Below, piece after piece: positions 8,269-45,927 of a stretch of DNA of 64,000 nt. The position numbers and the translations under genes are program-made. The DNA lies in the IMG/VR virus record IMGVR_UViG_3300006141_000002; one strand, written 5' to 3'. The notes below the pieces were generated by a model. It was not told where the DNA came from. It saw nothing but the letters and a program-made list of their open reading frames with translations, and did no database searches. Source of the DNA: a virus. Its lineage: Duplodnaviria > Heunggongvirae > Uroviricota > Caudoviricetes. The stretch's first letter is position 1; the number at the start of each line of letters is the position of its first letter.

Positions 8269-9834
8269 TTATCGCTGTGGTGGGAACTCAACAAAAAGCC
8301 CGCCGTATGGTTCATCAGCCGCGCCTTTTTCGATGGGCAGACGCGGTGTCTTCTGCTTCTGTGCAGAGAATGTCTGGTTTGAAGCATTCCGTCCACGAAT
8401 AGCGAAGCACTTGTCCTCGATATCTTCGATTGACATCTCTGCGCAATTTTCGCGCAGCTTCTCAAACGCCTCGATACCATTCAGATCTGGGAACATAGCA
8501 AAAACTGCACCCTCAGCGGCATCACGCTCATCACTGAGCTTCTGCTGCTTATACTGGCGCAGTTCGTTAAGTTCCGTATTCATTTGTTCGATTGTCCCGA
8601 ACGCAGCTTGGTACTTTCCCTCCAACTCAGCCTTCTCTGTATCAAACTTTGATTGGAGTTCACTTGTTTTTGCGGCAACCGATTTTTCAAGGACCGCATT
8701 GAACATCTCTCGATATGGAGAATCCGCGCTCCCCTCGTTAAAGGGCTCAACAGCGAGCTTCATGCGCTTCTTGCTGGCAAAATCGATCACGACGCGGTCG
8801 CCGTCCATGGAAAATCCAAACCCATACAGATTCCAGTCGCATGTATCTGTCGCATACACCTCAGACAAATCCCTGTCGTAATCCCAGAACCAATAATGGG
8901 AGTCCATACCCCACGAAGTCCCAACCTTCTCCTCGTAAAGCGCATTGAGGAGTTCATCACGGAATGTGCCTTCCAGAGAGAAGTCCTGTGTGCCGTTTTC
9001 GCCGTTGTTGTCATTGCTGGCGGCTTTCATTTCCTCAAACTTTGTCCGCAGTTCATCGAGAGACATATCGTCCACGGAAAAGCCCAGACTCTCAATATCG
9101 AGTCCATATTCAGCGGCCAGCTTCTTTTTCTCGTCCAACTCCTTTTCTCCTCCTTCCGTTGCGAAATTTTGTGTATTATTGTCATCCTGAATAGATGGAT
9201 TGACCGATTTGATGTTTTGTTTCAACTCTTTCATCATCAGAGCAAATTGTTGCCTACAGTTTCCTCTATCAAATAACTGCAGTGATGCAGATTCAAAACA
9301 GGGCTCTACGCCCTCACCGAGCAGGCAGAACGCTGTGAAGATAAACTTCTCGATCACATACAGGTCTCCCTGCATGTGTCCTTCGGTAACTGTAATCTCC
9401 ATCGACTGAGATACGATTCCATCTCGCTTAATCTTGTCATAAGCGGGAGAGCGTTTCCATAGGATCGCGTCCACAATAAAATACTCATGAACAGACCCGT
9501 CTTCTTCCTCGATCTTTTCAAAACTGTATTTTGCCCCCATCGGAATAACGCCGACAGCCGATGTCAAATTGATCAGCTTAACATCGCCAGAATCGGTGGC
9601 CACAATATCTATGTCATGGCCGCCAATCGTATCGGACTCTACATCGTAATTACATACGATTGGACAGTTGAACATTGATGGAATTGCATCTTCTGTACTT
9701 GACTTGTTGATAAATGAGCCATTCCGATTCCCGCCAAGATAAAATGCCTTCAGACGGGCAGAGGCAAACGACTCGTTAATATCGCAAATATCTTCGATAG
9801 AGGAAGTGAACTGCAGACGGATTTGGTTATCCAT
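8269..9834 (-). CDS. prohead protease / scaffold fusion protein (putative)
   Basis: 521 aa; N-terminal globular domain then long coiled-coil, acidic C-terminal half (KELDEKKKLAAEYG..., ELQSKFDTEKAELEGKYQ). Confidence 0.4.
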   Translation of the reverse strand: MDNQIRLQFTSSIEDICDINESFASARLKAFYLGGNRNGSFINKSSTEDAIPSMFNCPIVCNYDVESDTIGGHDIDIVATDSGDVKLINLTSAVGVIPMGAKYSFEKIEEEDGSVHEYFIVDAILWKRSPAYDKIKRDGIVSQSMEITVTEGHMQGDLYVIEKFIFTAFCLLGEGVEPCFESASLQLFDRGNCRQQFALMMKELKQNIKSVNPSIQDDNNTQNFATEGGEKELDEKKKLAAEYGLDIESLGFSVDDMSLDELRTKFEEMKAASNDNNGENGTQDFSLEGTFRDELLNALYEEKVGTSWGMDSHYWFWDYDRDLSEVYATDTCDWNLYGFGFSMDGDRVVIDFASKKRMKLAVEPFNEGSADSPYREMFNAVLEKSVAAKTSELQSKFDTEKAELEGKYQAAFGTIEQMNTELNELRQYKQQKLSDERDAAEGAVFAMFPDLNGIEAFEKLRENCAEMSIEDIEDKCFAIRGRNASNQTFSAQKQKTPRLPIEKGAADEPYGGLFVEFPPQR

Positions 9835-20130: not shown

Positions 20131-21343
20131 TCACCTCCTCCATCCAGTTGGTGAGCAGATCGCGCATACGCTTGCTTGGGACATACAGCCAAATCTCGTT
20201 CCCATCCCTGATTGCACTTCTCCAAATCCACTGTACCATGATGGACAGCGCATAAGCGTCTTCGTTTACATCAACACCGTTATTTTCATAGAAAATCTTT
20301 TGTCCAACGTTCATGTAAAGATTGACGCAATACGCCACGGCAGTGCGATCTCTATACTCATTGGTTGCTTTCTTATTGAATGGGATAAATCCTCTGGTGT
20401 ACCCTTTACCCTGTATCTTGTGTTTAGCGTCTTTATATGTACTCCACATCTTCTCGGCAGTATCTGTACCGCAGATATGACGGAAAAAGTTGTATAGGTT
20501 GTTCTTCAACTGATTGATGTCCGACCCCTCTTTGTTGAACCAGTTCAAGGACAGAGAGAACTCTGACTCTCCAATCTTGTTCAGCTTTGGATCATCCACC
20601 ACATGAATCATATCCTTCAACGTTGCAACGTACTCAGGGACATAACCCGATGAATCACTGAATCTGAACCCGACACTTTCGTCTCGCTGCACTCCGATGA
20701 ACTCATACGGGATATCGTACATCTCCAGAAAGTGGTGAAGGCTCTGCCCCTCGAACAGGTATGTCAGGATAAACACCTCGTCGAATGAAGTGATAAGTTC
20801 TGGCGGCAACTGCCAATAGAAGAAAGATTCCTTTTTCTCACCAGTCATACGGATCAGATCTCGCGTCCGCAGGATGCGGAACAACTCGCGGTGAGTCTTC
20901 CCGTTGTATACGTCTCTGGCGAGATGATATACGTCCTGCCGGACTTCTTCGATATACCCGGCATCTATCGCCATTTGAATGTCCGCCGGGTCTTCCTCCA
21001 GCGTCTCCAACACGTCAACGTTCTCGTCGATGATAAGCGTGTATCCACGATCCCTAACCATGTCCAGCAGCTCCTGTGGATAGAATCTGAACGCCTGGTG
21101 TGTGGTGGCGATGTTTTCCCCGCGTTTCACCAGATCAAGTGTATGGAGCGTTTTGGAACCGTTAAACTCTGTTTTCTTTTTGGGCTCGAAGAATTGGAGA
21201 CGTGGGCATGACGTTACGATCCGCGTCGCCTCCTCCAGATACGGTGTGATATAGACGAATCTTTTTTCAGGGTGCTCGTTCATGTATGTAATAGCAGCGG
21301 AACTTTTCCCCGTGCCCATAATGGCGTCGCATACTTTTACCAA
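20117..21343 (-). CDS. P-loop NTPase (helicase/ATPase-like)
   Basis: Walker A AIMGTGKSS, Walker B LIIDEN. Confidence 0.5.
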   Translation of the reverse strand: MVKVCDAIMGTGKSSAAITYMNEHPEKRFVYITPYLEEATRIVTSCPRLQFFEPKKKTEFNGSKTLHTLDLVKRGENIATTHQAFRFYPQELLDMVRDRGYTLIIDENVDVLETLEEDPADIQMAIDAGYIEEVRQDVYHLARDVYNGKTHRELFRILRTRDLIRMTGEKKESFFYWQLPPELITSFDEVFILTYLFEGQSLHHFLEMYDIPYEFIGVQRDESVGFRFSDSSGYVPEYVATLKDMIHVVDDPKLNKIGESEFSLSLNWFNKEGSDINQLKNNLYNFFRHICGTDTAEKMWSTYKDAKHKIQGKGYTRGFIPFNKKATNEYRDRTAVAYCVNLYMNVGQKIFYENNGVDVNEDAYALSIMVQWIWRSAIRDGNEIWLYVPSKRMRDLLTNWMEEVSVRG

Positions 21344-21720
21344 AAGATCACGTCCTTTATCCGGTCATTAAAGTAAAAGCCATGCTCGCCGGCCTCGTAC
21401 TTCTTCTTGTATCCAATACGCTCTAACGCCCACTGCGACGATCCGCACGGTTCGCACACGATACTGTCTGATGCTTGGATGTAATCAAAGTCATCGTGCT
21501 CCTCATCCCACACCTTATAACATACTGGACACCCATTGATGTCGCGGATGATTCCGACTACCACCCCGGCGTGGACAACACCGCTCTTATCTGATGCCTC
21601 CAGCTCATCACCGATAGATATGCGGTGATCCTCGCCAGAGCCGTAGTCGTCGAAGTCCTCCTCCACCGGTACGGCGCTGCAAATCCTATAGAACTGTAAC
21701 CAATTATTTTTCATAAGCAA
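21337..21720 (-). CDS. hypothetical Cys-rich protein
   Basis: 127-aa ORF with strong RBS. Confidence 0.4.
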   Translation of the reverse strand: MLMKNNWLQFYRICSAVPVEEDFDDYGSGEDHRISIGDELEASDKSGVVHAGVVVGIIRDINGCPVCYKVWDEEHDDFDYIQASDSIVCEPCGSSQWALERIGYKKKYEAGEHGFYFNDRIKDVIFW

Positions 21721-21736
21721 ACCTCCTTGCCACCGT

Positions 21737-21840
21737 TTGCCACCACCAAGGTGGCAAAACGAAAATTTGGTCCCTTGAAATGGGGCTTTTCAGGGGGTGA
21801 CCCTTAAAGAGAATCTCTGTAGGAACACTTGTAGCTATAG
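21737..21840. repeat. about 105-bp element, copy A (direct repeat of 29658-29755)
   Basis: TTGCCACC..GGTGGCAAAACG hairpin plus ACCCTTAAAGAGAATCTCTGTA shared with copy B. Confidence 0.6.
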
Positions 21841-21916
21841 AGCCTTAAAACAACGTAGCAGAGGGCTATGGTACTCTATGAAATTGTCAAGGTGCAATGG
21901 TGCCAGAGACGTCGGG

Positions 21917-22738
21917 TCAGCCGGCAGTCTGTTCGATGATGGTGCTGTCCACCAGATGCAGCTCGCGACGTCCACCCAGATTGAGTTTCAGGTACGCATC
22001 CTCGATCTCCTCACCAGTAATGCCGATATAGTCCAGTGTCTGGGCGGAGGTGCTATGTCCGAACATCTTCTGCAGGAGCAGGAGCTTGCGCGGATCGTTG
22101 TTGCTCATGACCATCTGATGATAGGCGAATGTCTTGCGGAGTGTATGTGTTGCAATGTGGATGTCGAGACCTAATGCCTCTCCGACCTCCTTCAGCACAC
22201 GATCTGCTGACTTCCTGGAGAGAGACTTGTTGTTGTCTTTACCGCACCTGTTGCTCACGCCCTTGAACATGAAGTCGCTAAGCCTGACGTTGGGCGTGTT
22301 CTCCAGATAGAGGGTGACAGCATCCACAACGGCATCGTTGATGGTGATGTATCTGTTCTTCTTTACATTTCTGGTGTTCTTCGTCTTCTTCTCCAGAATG
22401 GGAAATGTAGTCTTGAACCTGAACTGCTCGTCGATGATGTGGGAGAACCGCAGCGTCAGCAGATCGCTCACTCGCAGGCCAAAGTTGATGCCAACAATGA
22501 AGAGCATGTTGTCTCTGTACCGGCCATTGGAGATAAACCACTCAGAGACGGCGTATATGTCGTCCACACTCTTGATTGGCTCGCTGGTGTGTTCGTTGGC
22601 GATCTCGTAGCTCGTATCCTCTGTGGCCGGTGCGATCAGGCCATCTCGGAGAGCCCTGGCAGACCGGGCAACCGCCTTAACATCAATGATGGAGTCCTCA
22701 CTCCTCGCTCTGAAATCTACGGTAATTACCTTGTTCAT
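21917..22738 (-). CDS. int: tyrosine integrase/recombinase
   Basis: HTLRKTFAYH and LDYIG C-terminal catalytic region; start refined to MNKVITV with AGGAGGT RBS. Confidence 0.75.
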   Translation of the reverse strand: MNKVITVDFRARSEDSIIDVKAVARSARALRDGLIAPATEDTSYEIANEHTSEPIKSVDDIYAVSEWFISNGRYRDNMLFIVGINFGLRVSDLLTLRFSHIIDEQFRFKTTFPILEKKTKNTRNVKKNRYITINDAVVDAVTLYLENTPNVRLSDFMFKGVSNRCGKDNNKSLSRKSADRVLKEVGEALGLDIHIATHTLRKTFAYHQMVMSNNDPRKLLLLQKMFGHSTSAQTLDYIGITGEEIEDAYLKLNLGGRRELHLVDSTIIEQTAG

Positions 22739-22905
22739 CGTATTTGGTGACCTCCTATGTATCTGGCGAAACCGCCTCATAAATGCCTGTTGACTACGAT
22801 ACCATTATACCACATCTGGCCAAGATGTCAAGCGTTTTCTTCATAAAAAATTGTTGATTTTGGAGCCGTGGATCAAAGTCACAAATCAAGGCACTTTGGA
22901 AGGCA

Positions 22906-22977
22906 CCCTTTTATTATCTGTGATGATCCTATATAGAAATTGGCTTGTTCAAGGCACCATCCCCGATAATAAAAGGG
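22906..22977. promoter_or_regulatory. 13-bp perfect inverted repeat (CCCTTTTATTATC / GATAATAAAAGGG), each preceded by GGCACC
   Basis: seen directly in the int-regulator intergenic region. Confidence 0.45.
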
Positions 22978-23168
22978 CTTGAAACACAACGGATTGATGG
23001 GCGAGAAATCGGTGCCGAAGTGAGGAAAAATTGGGTGTGGGAGATGGGGCAACTAATGGGCTGGGGCGCGGCGTTGCCGTCTCAAAATATGGAAATTACG
23101 CCCCTATGGGACATAGTGTCATTTTGTGACATAGGGAACAGGGAGAAAAGCGGCCCACACTCCACATA

Positions 23169-23189
23169 GTGACATACAAGCCCATGCGT
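23169..23189 (+). promoter_or_regulatory. GTGACATACAAGCCCATGCGT motif copy 1 (promoter-like: GTGACA-N16-TACTAT)
   Basis: same 21-mer recurs at 24168 and 24249. Confidence 0.4.
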
Positions 23190-23213
23190 TACTATGCGCC
23201 ATAAAGAAAAGTG

Positions 23214-23242
23214 TTGACAAGTGGCGTTCGGTGGTGTATAGT
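23214..23242 (+). promoter_or_regulatory. sigma-70 consensus promoter TTGACA-17-TATAGT
   Basis: perfect -35, 17-nt spacer, near-consensus -10, 70 nt upstream of the 23315 start. Confidence 0.6.
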
Positions 23243-23314
23243 AGCTATATCACCAGGGCAGACACGCCGCAAACGTGCCACCCGATACCATTGGTGAATA
23301 GAAAGGAATACACC

Positions 23315-24097
23315 ATGAAATACCAAATTTGCACATTGGGAGCAGCCACCGAACAGGGGCGCACAGTCACAGCCACCGCACAAGTGGAAGCGGACACAAT
23401 CGCACAGGCCACCGAACAGGCCACGGCACAAGGGTATAAATTGGCGGATATTCGCGTTTATCCCTTCTGTACTCCCACCGATGGAGCGGCGCAAATGGAG
23501 CTTGCGCGTCACACATTGGCAAGCGTGGAAAATTGGGAGCGACGCAACAATAACGCCGTATTGAACCCCCAACGCCGTAACATATGGGAGCGTGAAGACA
23601 TGGTAATGATTGCATGTGTAGCAATCAACGCCATATTTGCGGAGAACGCCGCCGCCGATATGCACACGCTGAAAACCGCCGCCTTTTCTGCTATCCGCAC
23701 AGAACAGGGCAAAAAGGACAGGAATAGTGAGCGGGAATATATGCCCGGCTGGATTGCTTGCAACGTTACGCCGCGAGAGGCCCGCGCCACTTGCCCGGCC
23801 CTTGACAGACTGATTAGAAAAGCCGTCAAAAGCGCGGATATGACAGATGGGCAAATGAACGCGCTTTTGATGTCCTATGAACAGGGCAAAAGCGTGCAAG
23901 ACATAGCAGACGAAACAGGCACGAAACGCGCCACCGTCTACCAGACGCTTTACAGGGCTTATTACAAGGTACTTTCCCGCGCCGTTGAAATTGACGTCAA
24001 TTTACAAGCGTTCACCGCCGCTGGATACACGGCAAGCGACATTGACGAAACGTTGAACATTTTACGCCACCGCGCACGTTGGGACAAGAAAAAGTGA
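23315..24097 (+). CDS. transcriptional regulator with sigma-70 region-4-like HTH
   Basis: C-terminal MTDGQMNALLMSYEQGKSVQDIADETGTKRATVYQTLYRA resembles a region-4 HTH; RBS GAAAGGAA. Confidence 0.5.
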   Translation: MKYQICTLGAATEQGRTVTATAQVEADTIAQATEQATAQGYKLADIRVYPFCTPTDGAAQMELARHTLASVENWERRNNNAVLNPQRRNIWEREDMVMIACVAINAIFAENAAADMHTLKTAAFSAIRTEQGKKDRNSEREYMPGWIACNVTPREARATCPALDRLIRKAVKSADMTDGQMNALLMSYEQGKSVQDIADETGTKRATVYQTLYRAYYKVLSRAVEIDVNLQAFTAAGYTASDIDETLNILRHRARWDKKK

Positions 24098-24113
24098 TAC
24101 CAGGCCACCACGC

Positions 24114-24155
24114 AAGAGGGGAGCGGCACACGCCGCGCCCCTCTTTTTTTTTTTC
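24114..24155 (+). terminator. rho-independent terminator
   Basis: GAGGGGAGCGGCACACGCCGCGCCCCUC followed by U11. Confidence 0.7.
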
Positions 24156-24166
24156 GTTCGCCCTCT

Positions 24167-24301
24167 GGTGACATACAAGCCCATGCGTATATGTAGGGCG
24201 AACGGCACAGCACCGCCCCACAGCACCGCCACCGCCCACGCCGCACGGGTGACATACAAGCCCATGCGTATATGTAGGGCGAACGGCACAGCACCGCCCC
24301 A
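24167..24301 (+). repeat. tandem 54-bp direct repeat (x2) each carrying the GTGACATACAAGCCCATGCGTATATGTA promoter-like motif
   Basis: exact duplication separated by 27 nt. Confidence 0.65.
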
Positions 24302-24329
24302 CCAAAAAAAACAAGATACCAATGCAGCC

Positions 24330-25000
24330 CAGTCAATCCCTTATGGGTATTGGCCGGTCAGTCCCAAGCCTGTAATGCAGAGGGGTATCTCAGCGCCACC
24401 TTGAGGGCATCCCACGCTTGCTCAAGGGGTACTTCTGCCATCAGAAGAAGTGTACTCTTGCAACATGTGACGGCTCCAACCGTCCCAAGAGAAGGCCAGC
24501 CAAAAATTGGGAGAGTTAGGCTCCCAGTGCGCGGGTACTGAACGCGGGCAGTATTGAGTTCTCGGCAATCAGTTGGTTCCGCTCCAACTGCAAACGTGAT
24601 GGAAACGTGTGGGTGGATAAGTGCTTGACGGTTCAGGATGGCTCAGCTATAAAGCAGCTTTGTGACTATGCTTAAAAGGCGTCGCAGTTCTCAAGGAGGG
24701 TTGCGCGTTGCGTGGCACATCGCCGCCGGAAGGCTCTAAGGGAGTTAGTACAGCGAGCGGAATAGTTGGCCGGAGTGGATTTGATAGCATGATAACGTGA
24801 ATTTTTCTCTCCCAATGGTGAGCGGTTGAAATGCCGCGCACTTCGGTGAATACTGCGACAAGTGGTGCGGGCGTCTTTACGTCCCGTGGACTTGAGCGCA
24901 GAGCAGAAGTCACCAGAGGGAGTGCAAACCTATATCGAGCCCTGGAGCGGCTTCGTTCCAGGGCTTCATTATGGGCTTGCCCATAGAAAATCTTATTAGG
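24330..25000 (+). ncRNA. about 670-nt ORF-poor GC-rich region, candidate structured ncRNA or long leader
   Basis: no ORF over 90 aa; downstream of tandem promoter-like repeats. Confidence 0.2.
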
Positions 25001-25010
25001 AGGTTACGTT

Positions 25011-25874
25011 ATGGCAACGAAAAATCGTAAGGCAGAGCTGCTGAAGGATTACGAGGCGAAGATCGCCGAGGTCAACCAGGCTTGCGCCAAGGGAACGAAC
25101 GCCGACGTTGAGGGCAAGCTGGCTGAGCTCGTCAACATCGAGAAGGAGTATCGCTCCTTGCGCGAGTCCGAGGTGTTCGCCGGGCTTCTGGACACCCACC
25201 AGGCCATCGAGCTTCACCACTTCACCACCATCGGCCACAAGAAGACCACCGACGAGGGCCGCATGACCGGCGTTGAGAAGGCCGAGCGCACCGTTCAAAT
25301 CGACCTTAAGAAGTTCTGCGAGGTCAAGGGGTTCGACCTGGGCTGGTTCTATGAGCTTCAGGCTCTCAACAAGCGGCTGACGCTCCGCGTCGCCGAGACC
25401 ATCGGAGTTACCGCCGCTGAGATGAAGCGGATTGATGACTCCTACAACATGGACAAGTTGGCGTCTGAAATCCAGTTGGGCAAGACACCCACCAGCGACA
25501 CCCAGGTCGTCAAGCATATGCAACGGGTTTTGGACATGCTTTCCCCCGGTGAGGGCAAGGTCAACGGCCACGACCTGGGCTATGTGATGTCCTGTTACAC
25601 CAAGCGCAACAACCGCGCCGCCCTGCGGGTTCAGTGTTCCAAGCACACCATCCTGATGTCCTTGATGGGCGACGTTTTCTACCGCATCGTTACCAAGGGT
25701 GTCTACGGCGTGGATTACAAGCGCAACGGTGCCGCCGCCACCGAGCCCAAGGATGAGAAGGGTTCTGCGCCCAAGGCCAAAACGGGTTCCAAGACCCGCG
25801 CCAAGAAGTCCAAGGCGGCTGAGGTTTCCACTCCTGAGCCGATGACCGCCGAGAAGGCTCCTGCCGCCGCCTGA
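25011..25874 (+). CDS. hypothetical protein with Lys/Ala-rich histone-H1-like C-terminal tail
   Basis: strong RBS AGGAGGT; C-terminal KAKTGSKTRAKKSKAAE. Confidence 0.5.
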   Translation: MATKNRKAELLKDYEAKIAEVNQACAKGTNADVEGKLAELVNIEKEYRSLRESEVFAGLLDTHQAIELHHFTTIGHKKTTDEGRMTGVEKAERTVQIDLKKFCEVKGFDLGWFYELQALNKRLTLRVAETIGVTAAEMKRIDDSYNMDKLASEIQLGKTPTSDTQVVKHMQRVLDMLSPGEGKVNGHDLGYVMSCYTKRNNRAALRVQCSKHTILMSLMGDVFYRIVTKGVYGVDYKRNGAAATEPKDEKGSAPKAKTGSKTRAKKSKAAEVSTPEPMTAEKAPAAA

Positions 25875-26011
25875 TTGCGGCACAGCGGAGGTTTTACCTC
25901 CGCGCCTAATGCGACTGGCGGACGTTGTCCGCTAACGGTCTCAAGTCCGTGTAAACGCAGAGAGGGCAAAAGGTTTTGACTTACGGCCTGAAGGCCAGGA
26001 GGAGGTTTTGT

Positions 26012-26398
26012 ATGAGAAAACGTTTGACGGTTCTCATCTCTGCGGTCGTGATGGCCGTATCCCTGATGGCGATAGGTTCCACCGCGTTTGCTATCGGTCC
26101 CATTCTGGGAGGTCTGTCAATCGAAACGCCTGACGTTTCGGCCTACCATCTGAGGACTGCTGAGGTGGTGTCCTTGGATTATGAAGCGGATACGGTTTAT
26201 CTCGTGGACGCTGTAGGTTTTCGTTGGCAATTCGCTGGCTGTGAGGATTGGTGTACCGGCGATATTGCCGAGATTCTCTTGTGGGATTGTAACGGGACGC
26301 CCGACACCATCCTGGATGATGTGATTTTGAAAACAGAATACTCCGGCTATGTGATCCTTGAGCTGAGTCATCCGCCGTATGTTGTAAGCCAGGGTTAG
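26012..26398 (+). CDS. secreted/exported small protein (signal peptide)
   Basis: MRKRLTVLISAVVMAVSLMAIGSTAFA signal-like N-terminus, RBS GGAGGAGG. Confidence 0.45.
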   Translation: MRKRLTVLISAVVMAVSLMAIGSTAFAIGPILGGLSIETPDVSAYHLRTAEVVSLDYEADTVYLVDAVGFRWQFAGCEDWCTGDIAEILLWDCNGTPDTILDDVILKTEYSGYVILELSHPPYVVSQG

Positions 26399-26490
26399 GT
26401 TTTTGGCTCTGCTCTGGTGAGGTTTCTGATTGCAAATCAATTCTGCTGATGGTATAATTGGCTTAAACTTTAGGCAAGGAGCGTGATGGA

Positions 26491-26829
26491 TTGTACCAGT
26501 TTGAGCACATCTTCGAGGCTCTGCTTGTGGCTGCCGTAAGGGACGGCCCTTCGGACAAATGCACTGTGAACGATGGTCAGTATGAGGTTTTGAAATCCGT
26601 TTACAATGAGGTTTCCGACATCATTGGAGCGGCGGCGACCTTGAAGCTATACCCGACGTTCACTTCTGGGAGCGTTTCGATTGAGATTCCTGACATCCAC
26701 TTGGAAGGAGAAAAGGTTTCTATGCTGAGAGACGCTTTGAGCAAGTGCAATACCTTCGAGCTGGTTCCATTGAACAATGGCGGTCTAAGGGCTTCGATGA
26801 CGGTGAAAGGCGTTTTCGACGACAACTGA
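26491..26829 (+). CDS. hypothetical protein (TTG start)
   Basis: AAGGAG RBS 10 nt upstream of TTG. Confidence 0.3.
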   Translation: MYQFEHIFEALLVAAVRDGPSDKCTVNDGQYEVLKSVYNEVSDIIGAAATLKLYPTFTSGSVSIEIPDIHLEGEKVSMLRDALSKCNTFELVPLNNGGLRASMTVKGVFDDN

Positions 26830-26844
26830 ACAGGCGTATAAAAG

Positions 26845-26882
26845 GACTCTCTGAGGTTTCGACCCAGAGGGTCTTTTTTATG
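26845..26882 (+). terminator. rho-independent terminator
   Basis: 9-bp stem GACUCUCUG/CAGAGGGUC then U6. Confidence 0.5.
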
Positions 26883-26998
26883 CCCATTTGATAGCCGCGC
26901 TGATGAGCCGTAATGACGGCGAAACGGGCTTTTGCCCGTCCGCGGATGGAATACTGTCTGCTGAGGTTCACAAATCAAAAAATGAACGGAGGAAATCT

Positions 26999-27130
26999 AT
27001 GGCGAATTATTCTTGTAAGGAGACATGCGGGCAGGAGAAGCCCTGCGGAAACAGATATTGCTCCGCTAATCCGAAGTATGTCCCGCCCGCTCCCAAGAAG
27101 AAGGGCAAGAAGGTTTCCGGCAGTAAGTAG
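26999..27130 (+). CDS. 43-aa Cys-rich basic peptide
   Basis: MANYSCKETCGQEKPCGNRYC...KKKGKK; RBS AACGGAGGAAA. Confidence 0.3.
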   Translation: MANYSCKETCGQEKPCGNRYCSANPKYVPPAPKKKGKKVSGSK

Positions 27131-27360
27131 TCGGCATATAGCCGCCCTGACGAGTCGCTGAAAATTGCGACGAAACCGCCCAATAGGGCGGTCGGCGGAA
27201 CAGGCATATAGGGGCCGCGTTCGAGTCACCCATGTTGCCGGGTTCACAGGCTAAACTCCCTCGATTTGCTTCAAGTGAACTGTTGAGCTGAGGGTAATGG
27301 AACTGTATGCTGTTCCGCCATCAGGTTTCAAACCAAAATCGAATATGAGAGGGTGATACG

Positions 27361-27573
27361 ATGACCAAGTTTGAGCAGCGCGGCGTTGAGCTCCAGCATG
27401 AAGCTGTATCCATCGGCCACGCAAGAAAGAATTTCTCTTACTCCTGCGATGTGTGCTGCAATAGGGGTTTGCATCTGGATTGCGATAGGTGTGCTATCGC
27501 AGCTACTCACTCTCTCGTTGTCGCCACATTCGAGGGTGCTTCTGTATCCATGCCCAGAAGGGTTTTAAGGTAA
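27361..27573 (+). CDS. small Cys-rich hypothetical protein
   Basis: CDVCCNRGLHLDCDRC; RBS GAGAGGGTGA. Confidence 0.35.
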   Translation: MTKFEQRGVELQHEAVSIGHARKNFSYSCDVCCNRGLHLDCDRCAIAATHSLVVATFEGASVSMPRRVLR

Positions 27574-27677
27574 CATCTGGCCAGTGCGCCGTGTTCGGAG
27601 GTTGGCGGCGTTGAACGAGGTGGAGGCTGGCCTCGTGGTAAAAATCATAGCGGTTCATTTGCATAGGGGGATTAGAT

Positions 27678-27833
27678 ATGAAACGCTTTGCAGTTTTCGG
27701 TTATGGGTATAACCCCAATATTCCGGTCTGTTATGTCTTCGCGCTGAAAATCGAAGAAGCATGGGAACAGGCAAAAGAACTTGTCGGCGGACGGGTTTTC
27801 ATCTCTGATGTGGTGGAAGAACAGCCGGCATGA
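27678..27833 (+). CDS. small hypothetical protein (51 aa)
   Basis: ATG after RBS-like GGGGGATTAG. Confidence 0.2.
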   Translation: MKRFAVFGYGYNPNIPVCYVFALKIEEAWEQAKELVGGRVFISDVVEEQPA

Positions 27834-27885
27834 TTTCAGTTAGTAAACCGATCCTCATACCGATTTTGAGGTTCGGTTTGCATAT

Positions 27886-27958
27886 GGCGTGGTAGCTCAG
27901 TAGGTAGAGCTGCGGATTGATAATCCGTGTGTCGCCGGTTCAAGCCCGGTCCACGCTA
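27886..27958 (+). tRNA. tRNA-Ile (anticodon GAT)
   Basis: GGCGUGG acceptor, D-loop AGCUCAGUAGGUAGAGC, anticodon loop UUGAUAA, T-loop GGUUCAAGCCC. Confidence 0.7.
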
Positions 27959-28206
27959 AACCACATGGCAAAGCTGACCGCGACGGGCTTTACGCGGCAT
28001 ACCGTATCGTGAAAAGAGTACCGAGATACGGAAGGGATTGGGAGGCGTCCCCATTCCTTGGTCTGAGGGGATGACCCAGCAGTGGGTAGAAAGTCGGGAA
28101 AATCCGATAGTTTAGTTTATGAATTGATACGGACTAAGCTACACGCACACTTACGAAATAAGAAACCTCAGTAGCGTGGGTCGCCGTCCAGAATTTCCGG
28201 ACGGCT

Positions 28207-28255
28207 TCTTAATGCAGCCATTGGCGGTCACAAGCCCGCATGAGAAATGCAGAGT
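28207..28255 (+). repeat. 48-nt conserved element copy 1 (covarying hairpin with loop UCACAAGC)
   Basis: TTAATGCAGCCATTGGCGGTCACAAGCCCGCATGAGAAATGCAGAGTG vs copy at 29601. Confidence 0.5.
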
Positions 28256-28285
28256 GAGAAACCCGCAACGAGAGGGAGGTTTTAG

Positions 28286-28492
28286 ATGGCAGCTTATACA
28301 AGAAATCAGCGCCGCCAGAAGCTAATGGCACAGCAAAGGGTCATGGGTTTGATTATGCTCCTTATCACAGGTCTCATCTTCTGGCTCGCTTCAACCGGCG
28401 TAACACCTGAAGACCAGGACTGTACCGCAATCTTCATCACGCTCCCACTCGGTCTGTGGTTTCTGTTCAGCCGCAAAATCGTGATTGTATAA
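28286..28492 (+). CDS. small membrane protein
   Basis: two hydrophobic segments; RBS AGAGGGAGG. Confidence 0.4.
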   Translation: MAAYTRNQRRQKLMAQQRVMGLIMLLITGLIFWLASTGVTPEDQDCTAIFITLPLGLWFLFSRKIVIV

Positions 28493-28504
28493 AGAGGTGA
28501 GGTC

Positions 28505-29050
28505 ATGAAAGAAAACATCACCGTGGATGAGCTTTGGGAATATTTCTCAGAGCACAGGAAAGCGTTGGCAAATGAGTATCAGGTAATTGCCAGCGATGAA
28601 GATCAAGGCGTTGAAATCTATGTCGCCGAAGATGGAGGTTTCCCCTGTTTCTCTGTTGAGGTTGACGGCGAGGAGGTTCACAACGTCAAGACCTATTCGT
28701 ACCTCGACGCAGAGAAGACCTATGATAACTTGCTTTCCACATATATCTATCCCGACGATGATGAGGAAGATTATGTGTCGGGCGATGAAGAACGGGTCAA
28801 TGAAATCATCGGTTCCGTCGAGGACATGCTTACCGTCATGCTTGACGAAGACCCCGCAAAGGCGGGAATTTCTCCACAGGAAATTGATGAAATCGCCTCA
28901 ATCGTCGAGGAATACCTGTTCGAGAACTTTGGGTTCTCTATCCGACACCCAACCAATGTTGACGGCGTGATGGTTCAGTACCCGTTTGGAGATCCCGATG
29001 AGGGTTCGGAAGACATTCCTGATCCTGATAGCATCGACCAGGAAACCTAA
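28505..29050 (+). CDS. acidic hypothetical protein
   Basis: 181 aa, Asp/Glu rich; RBS AAAGAGGTGAGG. Confidence 0.5.
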   Translation: MKENITVDELWEYFSEHRKALANEYQVIASDEDQGVEIYVAEDGGFPCFSVEVDGEEVHNVKTYSYLDAEKTYDNLLSTYIYPDDDEEDYVSGDEERVNEIIGSVEDMLTVMLDEDPAKAGISPQEIDEIASIVEEYLFENFGFSIRHPTNVDGVMVQYPFGDPDEGSEDIPDPDSIDQET

Positions 29051-29447
29051 AACGGTAGTTTTATTTCGTTATTCTGCACTCTGAAGACGCCTAGGAGTGT
29101 TTGAATATTATCTTCATGGAGGTATCCGAGAATTTATGCCCGCCGCGCCCGGCGGTAGACCGGGCCCATTGCGCCGGGGACGGAACCTCGAAAAGGAGGG
29201 AAGGTTTTGCATCGAGCACGCGACCAGCCCAAATCTTCATAATAGATTGATTATCGAAGATTAAATTGAAAGATTTTACGGCGCCGCCGGCAGATTTGCC
29301 AGACGGCGTGAAGTCCATGCTTTACCGATGAGTAAAGGAGGTTTGCCGAACCTTGACATCAACCTGGGGAGTCATATGTGCTCCCCGTTGAATGCCGGCC
29401 TATCAGCAGTTTGGTGGTTCTGCCTGAACAAAAACCACCACCCTAAG

Positions 29448-29515
29448 TCGGGGTGGCCGAGCGACTGGAGGCGGGAAACCGTCCGTGGGTTCAAATCCCA
29501 CTCCCGATGCCAGCG
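29448..29515 (+). other. tRNA-like element lacking an anticodon arm
   Basis: acceptor GUCGGGG/UCCCGAU with G.U pairs, class-II D arm GCC-GAGCGACUGGA-GGC, T arm GUGGGUUCAAAUCCCAC, 3' GCCA. Confidence 0.3.
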
Positions 29516-29600
29516 CCATAGGCGCTTCCCAATGCCGTAGGTTACATCCAGCGGTTCTTTCCTTTCCGATAGGCGGCCTGCAAAGTAGCGGGCCGCCTGC

Positions 29601-29648
29601 CTAATGCGGCCATAGCCGGTCACAAGCCCGGTTCAGAAACGCAGAGTG
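29601..29648 (+). repeat. 48-nt conserved element copy 2
   Basis: CTAATGCGGCCATAGCCGGTCACAAGCCCGGTTCAGAAACGCAGAGTG; stem covaries (GCGG/CCGC vs CCGG/CCGG). Confidence 0.5.
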
Positions 29649-29657
29649 GGCAATCGC

Positions 29658-29755
29658 TTGCCACCATCGAGGTGGCAAAACGCTCAAAAAGTCCTTGATT
29701 TGCAATGGTTTGAGGGGTGTTACCCTTAAAGAGAATCTCTGTACTATTGTAGATA
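29658..29755. repeat. about 100-bp element, copy B (direct repeat of 21737-21840)
   Basis: alignable over about 100 bp with copy A. Confidence 0.6.
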
Positions 29756-29765
29756 GGGAAACGAC

Positions 29766-29800
29766 AGACACTGGCTGGAGACAGTTAGTGTCTTTTTTAC
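29766..29800 (+). terminator. terminator-like hairpin + U6
   Basis: GACACU...AGUGUC then UUUUUU. Confidence 0.4.
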
Positions 29801-30017
29801 TCGCCAGAGGAAGAAAGTGAGGTGCCTCATGTATCAGTTCAAATGGGTCAGAGGACACATTGAGGTCTTCCTCGATGGTGTCTTTCAGTTCAGCGCGGAT
29901 ACCATGAAAGAAGCGTTGGACGAACTTGATGGTGTCGATTGACGATGCCAATCCCATTGGGATTAGCGCTCTCCCCGAGCGTTTGATCTAAGTACATAAA
30001 GGAAAGGAGTTTAGTCA

Positions 30018-31334
30018 ATGCCCAAATACAAAGAGGGGGATAAGGTCAAGGTGTTGGACGATCTCGAAGTGCGCAGCGGGTACTACATGGATGATGGTAG
30101 TCATCACAATAGTGTTGTGCCCGAAATGACGCATCTCCGCGGTCAAGTTGTGACCATCGAAGAAGTTGACTGTTACGGCTACCATATCCGAGAGGACTGC
30201 GGTGGATGGGGGTGGACCGACGAAATGTTCGCAGGTTTTGCTGTCAAATACCATGTCGGCGATAAGGTTATGGTGAGGTCTGACCTCGACGACCTTCATG
30301 CCCCTGCGATGCGGGAACTGGCTGGCCGCGAAGTTACGATCACTGGGGAGGATGTGGTGGACGTGTTCGGGAGCGAACCCGGTTACTCCATCGCTGAAGA
30401 CGATGGAATGTGGGTCTGGCACGCTAACGACTTTGCCGGTCCTGCTATCCAGCGGTTCACCCGCACGACGGCGCCCGCCTGCAGATCCACAGTTCCCTGC
30501 ATCCCCGGCGTTCCTGTTCAGCCTACTGTGACTGGCGGAATCACCTGCGGCACCCAGACCAACACTACAACAAAGAATGAAAGGAAGAAGTCCAAAATGA
30601 AGTTTGATTTCAAGAAAATGCTGAAGCAGTACATGCCCCACGCCATCGATGACGGCTCCGTCGCTCTGAGCATCTCCGGCGACATCGCCTACCAGCGCAA
30701 GAACGGCGACTATGTCTTCTACGATCCCGAGAGCAAGTCCATCAACAACTGCATGGATCTGGTGCTGGGTTCCGAGGCGCTGGACAAGATGGTCTTCGTC
30801 ATGCCCGTGAAGGACGTCAGCGTCGGCGACGTGGTTCTCAACGGCGGAAAGTATATCTACATCACCAACATCACCCACTCGGGTGCCATCAAGGGTGTGT
30901 CTCTGGACAGTGGCCGTACCGCCACTCTGGTGAAGGAGATCAACACCGTGATGGGCTACTGCCCCTACGCCAAGGTCACTTCTCTGTTCACCATGATGAA
31001 CGGCAAGGGTGCTGAGGGCATCAACCCCATGTTCCTGATGCTGATGGGCGACGCCGACAGCGAGGACGATCTGTTCACCACTGTTGCCATGATGACCATG
31101 ATGGGCGGCAACGCTGCTGCGGCTCCCACCGGTGGCCTGTTCGGTGGGATCAACCCCCTGATGCTGATGGCTCTGTCCGGCGGCGATGACGATGGCGAGT
31201 CCGGCGGTATGATGAAGATGCTGATGCTGAGCCAGATGATGGGCGGCGGCCTGTTTCAGGCTCCTGCGGCTGTTCCTGCTCCGGCTCCGGTTGTCCAGCA
31301 GACTGAGGCTGACGAGGTTGCTGACGCGGAGTAA
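30018..31334 (+). CDS. protein with two N-terminal SH3-like repeats and a Met/Gly-rich low-complexity C-terminal half
   Basis: YKEGDKVKVLDD / YHVGDKVMVRSD repeats resemble the 43811 and 44103 proteins; C-terminus MLMGDADSEDDLFTTVAMMTMMGGN; internal RBS+ATG at 30597 could give a separate product. Confidence 0.4.
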   Translation: MPKYKEGDKVKVLDDLEVRSGYYMDDGSHHNSVVPEMTHLRGQVVTIEEVDCYGYHIREDCGGWGWTDEMFAGFAVKYHVGDKVMVRSDLDDLHAPAMRELAGREVTITGEDVVDVFGSEPGYSIAEDDGMWVWHANDFAGPAIQRFTRTTAPACRSTVPCIPGVPVQPTVTGGITCGTQTNTTTKNERKKSKMKFDFKKMLKQYMPHAIDDGSVALSISGDIAYQRKNGDYVFYDPESKSINNCMDLVLGSEALDKMVFVMPVKDVSVGDVVLNGGKYIYITNITHSGAIKGVSLDSGRTATLVKEINTVMGYCPYAKVTSLFTMMNGKGAEGINPMFLMLMGDADSEDDLFTTVAMMTMMGGNAAAAPTGGLFGGINPLMLMALSGGDDDGESGGMMKMLMLSQMMGGGLFQAPAAVPAPAPVVQQTEADEVADAE

Positions 31335-32562: not shown

Positions 32563-32648
32563 CTATGAGAGTGTAGCTCAGTGGCAGAGCGGGGCAGATA
32601 CATGCCTGTCAACCGGATATGCGCTGCGTGGGTTCGATTCCCACCACT
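32563..32648 (+). tRNA. tRNA-like gene, anticodon unresolved (possibly CAU)
   Basis: acceptor GAGAGUG/CACUCUC, D arm AGCUCAGUGGCAGAGC, T arm GUGGGUUCGAUUCCCAC; the anticodon region did not fold cleanly by eye. Confidence 0.4.
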
Positions 32649-32657
32649 CTCTAATAT

Positions 32658-40839: not shown

Positions 40840-41218
40840 GTCTGTATTGCATTACTTTCAGAGTTATTCTGAGGGTGCTCTGTATTGTAAATCAGAGTTG
40901 CGCATGGCTGGGAGAAGGGACACCCCGCCCGGAGGCGGAATCTGAAGGCGCCTGCCCGCCACCGAGGTCAAGAGGTAATAAATAAACTGTTTTCTACTGC
41001 TCCAAATACGCAAAGAACTCTTGACATCTCGACCAGAAAGGTGACGGACAGCAAACAGGAAGACAGATGGCGACCCCAAGAACCATCGGACCGCCGCAAA
41101 TCACTCACCAGATTACCCACCGAGCCCGCACTCAGTCCCAGCTCTCAAGTACCCATCGCATCCTGAATTCCTCAACCTACTGTATACCAGAATACAGACA
41201 TCAGGAGGTATTAAAAAT
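40840..41218 (+). ncRNA. candidate retron-type ncRNA (msr/msd) or structured leader upstream of the RT
   Basis: GC-rich hairpins; ATAGTCTGTATTG at about 40840 complementary to CAGAATACAGAC at about 41184 (a1/a2-like). Confidence 0.2.
40878..40897 (+). repeat. hairpin repeat copy 1 (CTCTG-TATTGTAAAT-CAGAG) with 25-nt conserved 3' extension
   Basis: 5 copies in window, stem covaries in copy 5. Confidence 0.6.
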
Positions 41219-42358
41219 ATGCCATACATAACCGTCATGCAATCGCCTGCATACCATCAGATATCATTTGAGGAAATCATATCTGGTGAGGTCAACATGC
41301 AGTCTATGATAACTTCAAACAGCACCAATACCAGAACGCATTTCGCACAGCGACTCAAGCCACAGTTTCTGGATCGGTTCGATTTCGCCGGTATGGTCTC
41401 CGCTCTGGAGAGTTTTTGCGAACAAAATGCCGAGCTGTATGCCGTTCCGAGAGAAGCCCTCTATACCACATTCCATATTCCGAAGAAGTCCGGCGGCCTG
41501 CGTGAGATCAATGCCCCTGTGCCAGAACTGATGACGGCGCTTCGGAATCTGAAGACTTTGTTTGAGACCAAGATGTTTGCGCTGTACCACACCTCCGCCT
41601 TTGCCTATGTTAAGAATCGTTCCACCATTGACGCCATCAAACGTCACCAGAGGAATGACAGTCATTGGTTCTTAAAGACGGATTTCTCGAACTTTTTTGG
41701 GGACACAACGCTGGTATTCCTTCGGTATTCGCTCTCTTTGATTTTCCCGTTCAGCGAGATTGTCAAGTCAGAACGGGGCAGAGCAGCACTGGACAAGGCA
41801 CTCAACCTCTGTTTTCTTCATGGCGGATTGCCGCAGGGCACGCCGATTTCTCCGATGCTCACAAATCTGATGATGATCCCCCTTGATCACAAGGTATACA
41901 ATACCCTGCGTGATTTTAACGGGCAGTCGTTCGTTTACACCAGATACGCAGACGACTCTCTAATTTCAAGCCGGAGAGAGTTTGACTACAATAAGGTCAT
42001 CGACTTCATCAATCAGACGCTGGATGATTTCCATGCGCCGTTCAAGATCAAGGATGAGAAGACGAGGTATGGTTCCAGAGCCGGCAGTAATTGGAACCTC
42101 GGGCTCATGCTCAATAAGGACAATGAGATCACCATCGGTCACAAGAACAAGCAGCGTTTTCGTGCAATGATCAGCAACTACATCCTCGACCGTAAGAACG
42201 GAATTGTCTGGGAACTGCACGATGTTCAGGTTTTGCGCGGCCTTATCAACTACTACCGGATGGTTGAAGAAAAGTATGTTGACGAGGTCATCAAGTACAA
42301 CAACGAAAAATATCAAACGGACGTAATGCGTACCATCCATGAGGATTTGGCCGCATAA
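41219..42358 (+). CDS. retron-type reverse transcriptase
   Basis: IPKKSGGLREI, NRSTIDAIKRH, FLKTDFSNFFG, LPQGTPISPMLTNL, YTRYADD; C-terminal region alignable to the retron INxKKT...VTG...IG region with NLG for VTG. Confidence 0.7.
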   Translation: MPYITVMQSPAYHQISFEEIISGEVNMQSMITSNSTNTRTHFAQRLKPQFLDRFDFAGMVSALESFCEQNAELYAVPREALYTTFHIPKKSGGLREINAPVPELMTALRNLKTLFETKMFALYHTSAFAYVKNRSTIDAIKRHQRNDSHWFLKTDFSNFFGDTTLVFLRYSLSLIFPFSEIVKSERGRAALDKALNLCFLHGGLPQGTPISPMLTNLMMIPLDHKVYNTLRDFNGQSFVYTRYADDSLISSRREFDYNKVIDFINQTLDDFHAPFKIKDEKTRYGSRAGSNWNLGLMLNKDNEITIGHKNKQRFRAMISNYILDRKNGIVWELHDVQVLRGLINYYRMVEEKYVDEVIKYNNEKYQTDVMRTIHEDLAA

Positions 42359-42404
42359 ATAAGCAAAATTTTGTAATGTATAGCCTTTTGTTCCTCAAAA
42401 GGCA

Positions 42405-42424
42405 CTCTGTATTGTAAATCAGAG
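42405..42424 (+). repeat. hairpin repeat copy 2 + conserved extension TAACGAATGGCTGGGAGAAGGGAGCC
   Basis: preceded by a small variable hairpin GCCTTTTG..CAAAAGGC. Confidence 0.6.
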
Positions 42425-42730
42425 TAACGAATGGCTGGGAGAAGGGAGCCTGCCAGGCTGCGCAGTGCTGCCGGCCGCGACGGCAGCAGGAGATGCTAAA
42501 CACCCTTACCAACATCACGAAGAACGGAACTATTACCGAACTGCACATTTCGCCAGGAAATCAGCAGGAACTCCGTCACAAAAATTCCTGAAACCTGACA
42601 CCAGTTCGGACAGCCGGGAACACACGAGATGACATTCCCAGACTCACCTCTCTGGAGGAAACCATGGCCAGCTTCCTATCCCTTATGGTAGATTACAAAG
42701 TTTATGCAAAGCATGAAAGAGGTGGTTGAT

Positions 42731-43282
42731 ATGATTCAACTGGCAGTCGAAGTCAGTGATTTGGATTGCGGCGAATCCAAAGTCATTGTACTGCCATGTA
42801 ATCTGCGGGCAGAATTAGAGAATCATTATGATTACATTATTCTGTCCACCACGCCCAACATTCCAATCAGCCGAAACGACGATATCAGTGGATTGAACGA
42901 TATACTGGATGATATCAACAGCGAAAATCCTGGGATGACGGAAGATTATTTGAAGGTTCTGATGGAAGCTTCGTCTTCTGGTGACCTGTTCGATCCGGAA
43001 TTTGTGCGTAAGCTGAAAGAAAACGATTTTATGTTCGAGGACATATCTGATCTTCATTGGGCGATGAACGCAAAGGAGACCGCAGCTTGTTATCTGGCGA
43101 CTGAACTCAAAGTGCCGTTTGACCACGGTGTTACAGACGAGATGCTTGACACCCTCAGTAAAGACGTGCTGACCGACTATATCAACTGGGGACAGGTTTG
43201 GGATCAGTATTCTTCTGTTGGTTTTCGGGTCGTTGAGCAAGAGCCGCCGACCGGCGGGCGATATATTGTGCATATAAAATAA
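42731..43282 (+). CDS. acidic hypothetical protein (DNA-mimic/anti-restriction-like composition)
   Basis: RBS AAGAGGTGG; Asp/Glu-rich. Confidence 0.4.
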   Translation: MIQLAVEVSDLDCGESKVIVLPCNLRAELENHYDYIILSTTPNIPISRNDDISGLNDILDDINSENPGMTEDYLKVLMEASSSGDLFDPEFVRKLKENDFMFEDISDLHWAMNAKETAACYLATELKVPFDHGVTDEMLDTLSKDVLTDYINWGQVWDQYSSVGFRVVEQEPPTGGRYIVHIK

Positions 43283-43321
43283 CTTTGTTGTTGCGATGTA
43301 TTTTAAGTCGAAAGACTTAAA

Positions 43322-43341
43322 CTCTGTATTGTAAATCAGAG
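43322..43341 (+). repeat. hairpin repeat copy 3 + conserved extension
   Basis: ACTCTGTATTGTAAATCAGAGTAACGAATGGTTGGGTGGAGG. Confidence 0.6.
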
Positions 43342-45055: not shown

Positions 45056-45090
45056 TCCTACGGAGCGGTCAATTCGACCGCTCCCAATAT

Positions 45091-45165: not shown

Positions 45166-45169
45166 ACAT

Positions 45170-45244: not shown

Positions 45245-45248
45245 ATTT

Positions 45249-45847: not shown

Positions 45848-45850
45848 TCT

Positions 45851-45926: not shown

Positions 45927-45927
45927 G

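Follow-up and report, generated by a model that had tools for sequence, protein, structure and literature searches.

The 64,000-nucleotide stretch of viral DNA analysed here (the window; IMG/VR record IMGVR_UViG_3300006141_000002) carries two direct repeats of about 100 bp that lie some 8 kb apart and bracket a block containing a tyrosine-recombinase gene. Such a layout raises the question of whether the repeats are sites of recombination, the block being an integrative element or satellite nested in the phage or the repeats being att-derived sequences of the phage itself, or whether they are a regulatory module, such as a promoter or terminator, used twice. An initial annotation of this DNA had offered all three readings and led with the nested element. 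We find that the copies mark the two edges of an early-gene block, and we consider it fairly probable that they are paralogous copies of one cis-regulatory cassette in which an operator is followed by a small hairpin resembling a terminator and by a rightward promoter that depends on a factor. The interpretation of the initial annotation is upheld in part: the evidence favours the regulatory cassette, and speaks against both the nested element and attachment repeats of the phage's own.

Both repeats, copy A at about 21727-21842 and copy B at about 29650-29760, point rightward, and alignment and shuffle tests confirm that they are real and lie where they had first been placed. Aligned with MAFFT, the two copies show 77% column identity across the aligned stretch. 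This likeness is not uniform: it is concentrated in two blocks, one of 33 nt at 85% identity and one of 29 nt at 93%, separated by about 42 spacer columns at which A and B are only 43% identical. The 33-nt block contains a 21-bp dyad, TTGCCACC-N5-GGTGGCAA, at 21737-21757 and 29658-29678, and the 29-nt block contains an exact 22-mer, ACCCTTAAAGAGAATCTCTGTA, at 21800-21821 and 29722-29743. With up to three mismatches allowed, the dyad pattern has 3 matches in the window against 0.16 expected, a number reached in 0/100 dinucleotide-preserving shuffles; the 22-mer has 2 matches against 0.00 expected, and the pair was likewise reached in 0/100 shuffles. No third copy of the cassette was found in the 64 kb, either with the 17-nt core at 3 mismatches or with a covariance model of the whole cassette.

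Read from left to right, copy A begins with an extra half-site TTGCCACC (21727-21734, plus strand) that directly adjoins CCTCC (21722-21726), the Shine-Dalgarno complement of a leftward 127-aa gene. The half-site is followed by the dyad TTGCCACC-ACCAA-GGTGGCAA (21737-21757), which we read as a putative operator; by a second hairpin, GTCCC..GGGGC and then TTTTC (21770-21791, plus strand), which is weakly terminator-like in a single-strand fold and received no call in the terminator scan; and by the core (21793-21820, plus strand), which joins a GGGG box to the 20-mer CCCTTAAAGAGAATCTCTGT (21801-21820) and includes a −10-like GAGAAT (21809-21814) that may belong to a promoter. Copy B has a dyad with the same arms and a different central 5 nt, TTGCCACC-ATCGA-GGTGGCAA (29658-29678), a weak second hairpin, CCTTG..CAATGG and then TTTG (29692-29713, plus strand), again without a call in the terminator scan, and a core of GGGG box and 20-mer (29714-29742, plus strand; 20-mer at 29723-29742).

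Relatives of this locus were retrieved by using the invariant core to pull sites from viral contigs, metagenomes and contigs of metagenome-assembled genomes (MAGs) as exact 18- to 22-mer matches; homologues of the sigma-region-4 protein encoded in the block gave additional relatives as contigs with 10-kb flanks. Seven contigs carry both cassettes: the window, OFFU01000036, ERZ779632.19 and those labelled L187, L189, L190 and L191. Orthologous copies A of the window and its relatives are 91% identical where the adjacent DNA is about 75% identical. The 20-mer CCCTTAAAGAGAATCTCTGT is exact in the cassettes of all relatives except the B copy of L189, which has a single substitution, and the backbone proteins of these relatives have diverged to about 60-80% identity. 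What A and B have in common are the dyad arms, the GGGG box 3-5 nt before the core and the 20-mer. Between phages, spacer identity is 71-83% among A copies and 74-79% among B copies, far above the 43% between A and B, and we therefore conclude that the duplication is old and that the copies have been evolving separately. By their sequence, the copies are best described as old paralogues under selection and not as fresh crossover products.

The dyad arms occur in at least four types, GC, AC, GG and AT, which differ at two symmetric positions. The arms co-vary: over the 9 pairs, 95% of cells are paired, and at two positions both sides have changed. The score was reached in 0/500 shuffles, and slid controls gave 27-54% pairing. 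Copies A and B are of the same dyad type on 7/7 contigs, and three types are represented among these: GC in the window and L187, AC in OFFU01000036 and ERZ779632.19, and GG in L189, L190 and L191. In contrast, the A and B dyads have different central 5-7 nt in the window, L187, L189, L190 and L191, and identical ones (ACCCA) in OFFU01000036 and ERZ779632.19. Simple gene conversion is ruled out as the source of the match, because the centre would travel with the arms and yet the centres differ; matching arms with differing centres are most simply caused by a shared trans-acting reader of the arms. Most relatives have an extra half-site beside the dyad in copy A, and one is present in some of the B copies; the half-site of copy A varies in step with the dyad, being TTTACCACC in AC-type phages.

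A further contig, L192, has a copy A (8406-8507) whose dyad is of the GG type with the same central spacer as L191, on a backbone of the GC/AC clade and with a recombinase 88-90% identical to that of the GC group. The pattern resembles a patch-wise exchange in which the dyad with its centre, and nothing else, moved onto a foreign backbone.

A to B distances range from 6.3 to 8.5 kb on 7/7 contigs, across three dyad types, and the genes between the cassettes share an order (sigma-region-4, p287, p112, p70, p68, p181, cassette B, small gene) in which some are swapped or replaced. A relative that precisely lacks the 8-kb block, as the initial annotation had envisaged for an excised element, was not seen among the contigs showing both sites: an empty locus, with the block gone and a single site left, occurs in 0/7 of them. 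Exact-match scans of the viral, metagenome and genome collections gave no junction of A-left with B-right or of B-left with A-right. All exact core matches fall into three kinds: A-type sites, with a leftward gene at the left and the recombinase gene at the right; B-type sites, with a twister ribozyme or p181 at the left and a small gene at the right; and sites in unrelated contexts. On both sides of each copy the sequence is phage DNA that is syntenic in relatives and no prophage boundary lies there, which argues against repeats derived from attachment sites of the phage itself.

In the non-A contexts (n=8), a Shine-Dalgarno site and the start of an open reading frame (ORF) lie 51-110 nt past the core on the same strand. 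One of these contexts is L178, a 4.4-kb Lachnospiraceae MAG contig (CAZHGE010000135.1, 1-4456) that represents a different integrative element. Here two tandem cassettes with GG and AT dyads, 168 nt apart and in the same direction, stand upstream of a 257-aa gene, an Xis-like helix-turn-helix (HTH) gene and a full-length integrase gene whose product has Arm-DNA-bind_4 and SAM-like domains. The spacer of one L178 cassette is 93% identical to that of copy A of the GG-type phage L167, and L178 may be a satellite or small element under phage-specific control. Because the non-A contexts precede genes, L178 included, the cassette behaves as a portable upstream element for genes read rightward. An exact scan of viral contigs with the GC-type dyad and its 3' flank gave no match. 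In distant relatives, whose recombinases are 60-67% identical, no second copy was found within ±10 kb of the recombinase gene or in paired loci, and the only repeat is a different hairpin about 5.3 kb to the left. Two metagenome matches, L163 and L170, were discarded as chance 20-mer matches with otherwise no homology to the window.

The anatomy of the copies, their conservation, the matched dyad types of A and B and the fixed orientation to downstream genes are directly observed, and they suggest a cassette of four parts. The dyad-symmetric site, TT(G/A)C(C/G/T)ACC-N5-GGT(G/C/A)G(C/T)AA, would be the operator at which a phage protein binds DNA sequence-specifically; the short hairpin and T-rich run would end or insulate upstream transcription; the GGGG box would form the third part; and the near-invariant 20-bp core CCCTTAAAGAGAATCTCTGT would be a weak, factor-dependent rightward promoter core, in which GAGAAT serves as the −10-like element and transcription starts near the last T/A. 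Such a promoter would have to depend on a factor because the cores contain no proper −35/−10 pair. Copy B, at the right edge of an apparently ribozyme-punctuated early operon, would launch the rightward arm, starting with a small gene (29829-29942, plus strand; 37 aa, MYQFKWVRGHIE...) and going on to a 438-aa gene and beyond; the small gene has a Shine-Dalgarno site, begins 87 nt past the core and is 69-81% identical in relatives. Copy A, at the left edge, lies between the recombinase gene and the leftward YonV/YonO-like operon. The first gene of this operon (127 aa, 21337-21714, minus strand) starts 13 nt from the copy A half-site and is followed by YonV-like and YonO-like RNA polymerase genes, and the copy A dyad and half-site touch its ribosome-binding site. 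The core of copy A faces the recombinase gene at its 3' end, in antisense direction, and a promoter there could produce a short RNA or an antisense transcript into that end.

Several points weigh against this proposal. Both the promoter activity and the position of the start are guesswork. The promoter scan made no plus-strand call in the cores, its sole plus-strand match (TTGCCA-18-GAAAAT, 9/12) lying within the copy A dyad, the −35 region is poor and variable, and by eye GAGAAT matches TATAAT at only 4/6. An invariant core of 20 bp far exceeds what a sigma-A promoter needs, and the centre of the dyad is about 75 bp upstream of the guessed start, which is unusual for a repressor. The output of copy A has no obvious client, since no gene lies downstream on its strand. 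Compensated changes on both arms would be expected equally of an RNA hairpin. In addition, dyad type is tracked by none of the ten proteins that were compared (recombinase, sigma-region-4, p127, YonV-like, YonO-like, p244, exonuclease, HU, p60 and p181); L192 combines a GG dyad with a GC-clade backbone, and L193 (GC), L174 (AC) and L192 (GG) fall into one clade of the sigma-region-4 protein.

Individual candidates for the trans-acting reader were examined and set aside. The sigma-region-4 protein was rejected as reader of the dyad, because the window and L176 have different dyads and yet an identical recognition helix in this protein, and its tree is discordant as well; it is a candidate trans factor for the invariant core. 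The tree of the recombinase does not follow dyad type, as L192 illustrates. Protein p181, which is hypervariable and encoded beside copy B, is only 53% identical between two GC-type phages. As a reader of the 20-mer, the YonO-like polymerase is unlikely: the core occurs just twice and is directed away from the late genes. Antitermination of the Q type, considered on account of a PHROG Q-like match and a terminator past copy B, was rejected as well, since that terminator (a strong intrinsic one at 29766-29799, plus strand, with a 12-pair stem and T6, 24 nt past the copy B core) is present in this phage only and absent in its relatives. A more speculative form of the proposal, for which we see only a small chance, is that the cassette is a portable, clade-specific 'listening post' in which the invariant core is read by machinery that no phages but these SPbeta-like gut phages provide and an exchangeable dyad determines an immunity-like type; its reader would be a protein outside all the obvious candidates. 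This form would fit both the dyad swap in L192 and the stacked GG and AT cassettes in L178, and if it were true, L178 would be built as a satellite waking on infection by either of two helper types.

Three other explanations of the repeats have to be set against the operator-promoter cassette. It is very improbable, in our judgement, that the repeats are att-like or lox-like sites of the adjacent recombinase and that the block is a nested element or a cassette excised as a circle. Direct repeats do bracket a recombinase gene with all catalytic residues, the dyad, with arms of 8-9 bp flanking a centre of 5-7 bp, bears comparison with a core-type site, and the A and B centres agree in OFFU01000036 and ERZ779632.19. 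However, the centres differ in the window (ACCAA versus ATCGA) and in L187, L189, L190 and L191. Heterology in the overlap region blocks strand exchange by tyrosine recombinases (lambda Int, Cre, Xer), so that exchange between A and B would be blocked where the centres are heterologous. The retention of the block on 7/7 contigs and the lack of hybrid junctions among the exact 18- to 22-mer matches in the three collections also count against such sites, as do the character of the copies as old paralogues with orthologues of their own, the position of the cassette upstream of genes in unrelated contexts, once in tandem, a recombinase tree discordant with dyad type, and the place of the recombinase in the conserved phage backbone. 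In favour of such sites, mosaicism in the genome is highest within the block, where breaks in metagenome contigs are frequent; these breaks are explained, however, by an exact 21- to 55-nt repeat that adjoins the sigma-region-4 gene. The contig ends cluster beside that repeat and away from the cassettes, and the idea that the block is a direct terminal repeat or genome end was dropped on this ground.

The cassette might instead act as RNA, as a four-hairpin element such as a 3'-end or processing module after the last twister or a leader, which we think unlikely. The plus strand folds into recurring hairpins (the dyad, the variable hairpin 2, GGGG..CCC and AGAG-AAT-CTCT), the dyad changes are compensated with one T:G pair allowed on the plus strand only, and copy B always lies 5-10 nt past a twister ribozyme. 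Copy A, however, lies between two minus-strand genes, and because no plus-strand promoter is visible upstream of it, a plus-strand RNA would start inside the cassette itself. Moreover, the unpaired half-site repeats one arm only, which is better understood as a protein site than as part of a helix; A and B share the arm type and not the loop, which a cis-acting hairpin would not need; RNAalifold gave no consensus structure downstream of copy A; and no Rfam match overlaps either copy at E values up to 5 or at the gathering score. Quite unlikely, in turn, is punctuation alone, with the cassette serving as terminator or insulator at either end of the early region and lacking a promoter of its own. 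Both copies do stand at transcription-unit boundaries, the strongest plus-strand terminator of the region comes after copy B, and hairpin 2 with its T-run is terminator-like in several relatives, with a clean A-run, stem and T-run that give it the look of a bidirectional terminator in L169, L176, L189 and L190. Yet conservation is highest in the 20-mer downstream of the hairpins and not in the hairpins, and on neither strand does a T-run accompany the dyad. A terminator would require no invariant 20-mer and no agreement of A and B in dyad type, and the genes downstream, which have Shine-Dalgarno sites, begin at a fixed short distance.

The contents of the block agree with those first listed: a tyrosine recombinase, a sigma-region-4 protein, an ORF-free stretch, small genes, a tRNA-Ile gene and a tRNA-like piece. 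The recombinase gene (21917-22780, minus strand) encodes 287 aa with PF00589 (2e-15) as the only domain and no arm-binding domain. Its R, K, HxxR, H and Y residues all align with those of an archaeal XerC-like recombinase (PDB 4a8e), and because all catalytic residues are kept, the protein may still be an active enzyme; the recombinase-fold repressor MrpR of phage SPbeta was absent among its PDB sequence matches. The gene is a conserved backbone gene that adjoins the YonV/YonO-like operon in 76 viral loci, and its closest homologues in cultured phages are small mid-genome recombinase genes and not end-of-prophage integrases. In a Listeria phage the homologue adjoins a sigma-like gene, and in a Streptococcus phage a transcriptional regulator. 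The GG-type contigs L189-L191 have a second full-length XerC/D-like recombinase gene (343 aa, SAM-like N-terminal domain, locus ~424-1466) between the HU and exonuclease genes, which the window does not have.

Two further features accompany the recombinase gene. About 20 nt past its stop codon lies a 13-mer, TTGTCAAGGTGCA (21885-21897), that is kept in most of the 76 related loci (L007-L082), down to about 60% protein identity, while the remaining intergenic sequence around it changes completely among relatives. In distant relatives a strong plus-strand terminator ends just before the 13-mer, which could be a recombinase site, a minus-strand −35-like box or something else. Over the recombinase gene itself runs an antisense ORF (22035-22150, plus strand; MSEHLLQEQ...) that begins about 235-245 nt past the copy A core and stays open in relatives, including L011 and L167; this may merely reflect conservation of the opposite strand.

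Between the recombinase and sigma-region-4 genes (22804-23242) stand divergent promoters of sigma-A-type consensus, TTGACA-16-TATAAT leftward (22831-22804) and TTGACA-17-TATAGT rightward (23214-23242). The sigma-region-4 HTH protein (260 aa, 23315-24097, plus strand; PF08281 at 1e-8) is encoded by the first gene of the rightward early operon and is followed by a rightward run of small genes with tRNA-Ile. For its 76 homologues the listed domain matches are of the region-4/HTH type and include no region-2 match; one listed match is an unrelated tRNA-synthetase-type protein. An exact 21-mer, GTGACATACAAGCCCATGCGT, occurs three times around this gene (23169-23189, 24168-24188 and 24249-24269), the last two copies lying inside an exact 55-nt tandem (24167-24302), and GTGACA/TGTCAC palindromes are dense in 23100-23190, beside the rightward promoter. 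In relatives, many of the metagenome contigs stop 100-150 nt past the sigma-region-4 gene, probably as assembly breaks at the repeat.

The early operon also contains several candidate ribozymes. Just 5 nt separate copy B from the end of a twister-P1-like ribozyme at 29598-29652 (plus strand; 47.5 bits at E 2e-7, short of the gathering score), and the adjacency is kept in relatives, where a twister lies within 5-10 nt. This ribozyme is the last of four such matches, the others being at 24316-24388, 25903-25968 and 28206-28260, and is accompanied by a RAGATH-4-like RNA at 24799-24933 and hammerhead-like matches at 26895-26945 and 27125-27181, all on the plus strand. All matches are below the Rfam gathering scores, with E values of 1e-5 to 1e-14 for twister and RAGATH-4 and of only 0.007 and 0.14 for the hammerhead-like matches from a regional scan. 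All candidates lie within 24316-29652, in the gaps between cistrons of the early operon; those of the twister and RAGATH-4 kinds occur nowhere else in the 64 kb, and the scan for the weaker hammerhead matches covered 21600-30100 only. This distribution suggests a ribozyme-punctuated early operon in an SPbeta-like phage. The last twister is preceded, at a distance of 85 nt, by the tRNA-like piece (29440-29512, plus strand), in which the T-arm and the 3' strand of the acceptor are good and a GAAA-capped mini-helix takes the place of the anticodon arm; the piece was called neither by ARAGORN nor by the Rfam tRNA model.

By its gene content the window can be assigned to an SPbeta-like phage of gut Clostridia, from an uncultured group. 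Gene direction is leftward as far as 22780 and rightward from about 23200 on, and cumulative GC skew is lowest near 22 kb. The left arm, which encodes a portal protein, is syntenic with Bacillus phage SPbeta: the terminase is 45% identical to YonF, and homologues of YonN (HU), the YonJ exonuclease, YonV and YonO are present in the same order as in SPbeta. The YonO homologue, a single-subunit RNA polymerase of 918 aa, was identified by tblastn to SPbeta yonO (24% identity, E 1e-21) and by a precomputed RdRP Pfam match on the homologue in a relative; it is 38-41% identical to proteins of Enterocloster phages and of Clostridium phage c-st, and a PDB sequence search with it was uninformative. Megablast of 20-32 kb against GenBank phages gave no match. 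The presence of consensus sigma-A promoters and of strong Shine-Dalgarno sites suggests that the host is one of the Firmicutes. Elsewhere, the window carries a transfer-messenger RNA (45429-45847) with the tag AVEDTPEKQFSL, twelve tRNA genes across 14786-46407, one of them with an odd four-base anticodon call (32567-32652), and, in the right arm (50230-52963), the NAD-salvage genes for nicotinamide phosphoribosyltransferase and NAD synthase.

What replaces the nested element, a false lead, is a concrete regulatory unit of SPbeta-like gut phages, which form a large uncultured group. The near-invariant 20-mer and a dyad of at least four types offer a handle for typing these phages, and the cassette, which a different integrative element (L178) has reused, points to a DNA-binding specificity factor beyond the proteins compared. 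If it does function as promoter and operator, it would offer a first look at the wiring of the lysis-lysogeny or early-to-middle switch among the SPbeta-like phages of Clostridia.

Among known systems, attL and attR sites resemble the two copies in that direct repeats bracket a tyrosine-recombinase gene and share an exact block, here of 22 nt. Unlike attL and attR, the copies come with no empty site or junction that we could find, their blocks are split by a diverged spacer, they are conserved as orthologues and their dyad centres are heterologous; the recombinase here also has no arm-binding domain, in contrast to the L178 integrase.

A closer parallel comes from SPbeta itself, in which SPBRE, a 15-bp motif present at about ten promoter regions, including that of the yonP-yonO operon, is bound by the master repressor MrpR (YopR), a protein of recombinase fold that has lost most catalytic residues (PMC10516654). 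The phage groups are related, and in both a short dyad is repeated in promoter regions, putative ones in the window, with a gene of tyrosine-recombinase fold close by. One SPBRE site controls the yonP-yonO (RNA polymerase) operon; comparably, copy A adjoins the YonV/YonO-like operon at its first gene. The systems differ in that the window has two sites, each within a composite of about 100 bp with an invariant 20-mer, in that the palindrome of the SPBRE region, TGTAATGCATTACA, is unlike this dyad, and in that the recombinase keeps all catalytic residues and has a tree discordant with dyad type. As a separate observation, a hairpin CTCTGTATTGTAAATCAGAG (family D1) occurs in five copies within 40843-47770, around a reverse-transcriptase gene (41219-42358) whose arrangement resembles a diversity-generating retroelement. 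At least three of these hairpins lie about 35 nt past a TGTAATGTATA-like box. The box is similar to the palindrome TGTAATGCATTACA that precedes yopM and yonP in SPbeta, and the hairpin and the cassette's 3' edge have CTCTGTA..TTGTA in common.

Proteins of the RinA/ArpU/LtrA super-family are late-gene activators of Gram-positive phages that act at the terS promoter, and LtrA resembles sigma region 4 (PMC3753634). The 260-aa protein of the window is like the LtrA-type activators in that sigma region 4 is its sole recognisable domain, and the sigma-like gene of the Listeria phage and the regulator gene of the Streptococcus phage, each beside a small recombinase-family gene, sit upstream of packaging genes; the cassettes here, unlike the sites of LtrA-type activators, are not upstream of packaging genes. 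The operators OL and OR of phage lambda differ from the cassettes, which are direct repeats that both point rightward and do not diverge, with a dyad about 75 bp upstream of the presumed start. As with OL and OR, however, two operator copies would flank an early, regulatory region, and as with the lambda immunity types, the operator sequence varies among related phages and matches within a phage. The proposed promoter would also be comparable to the CII-dependent PRE in being weak and requiring a factor. The PRE transcript of lambda runs antisense through cro, and the copy A transcript would likewise oppose one gene.

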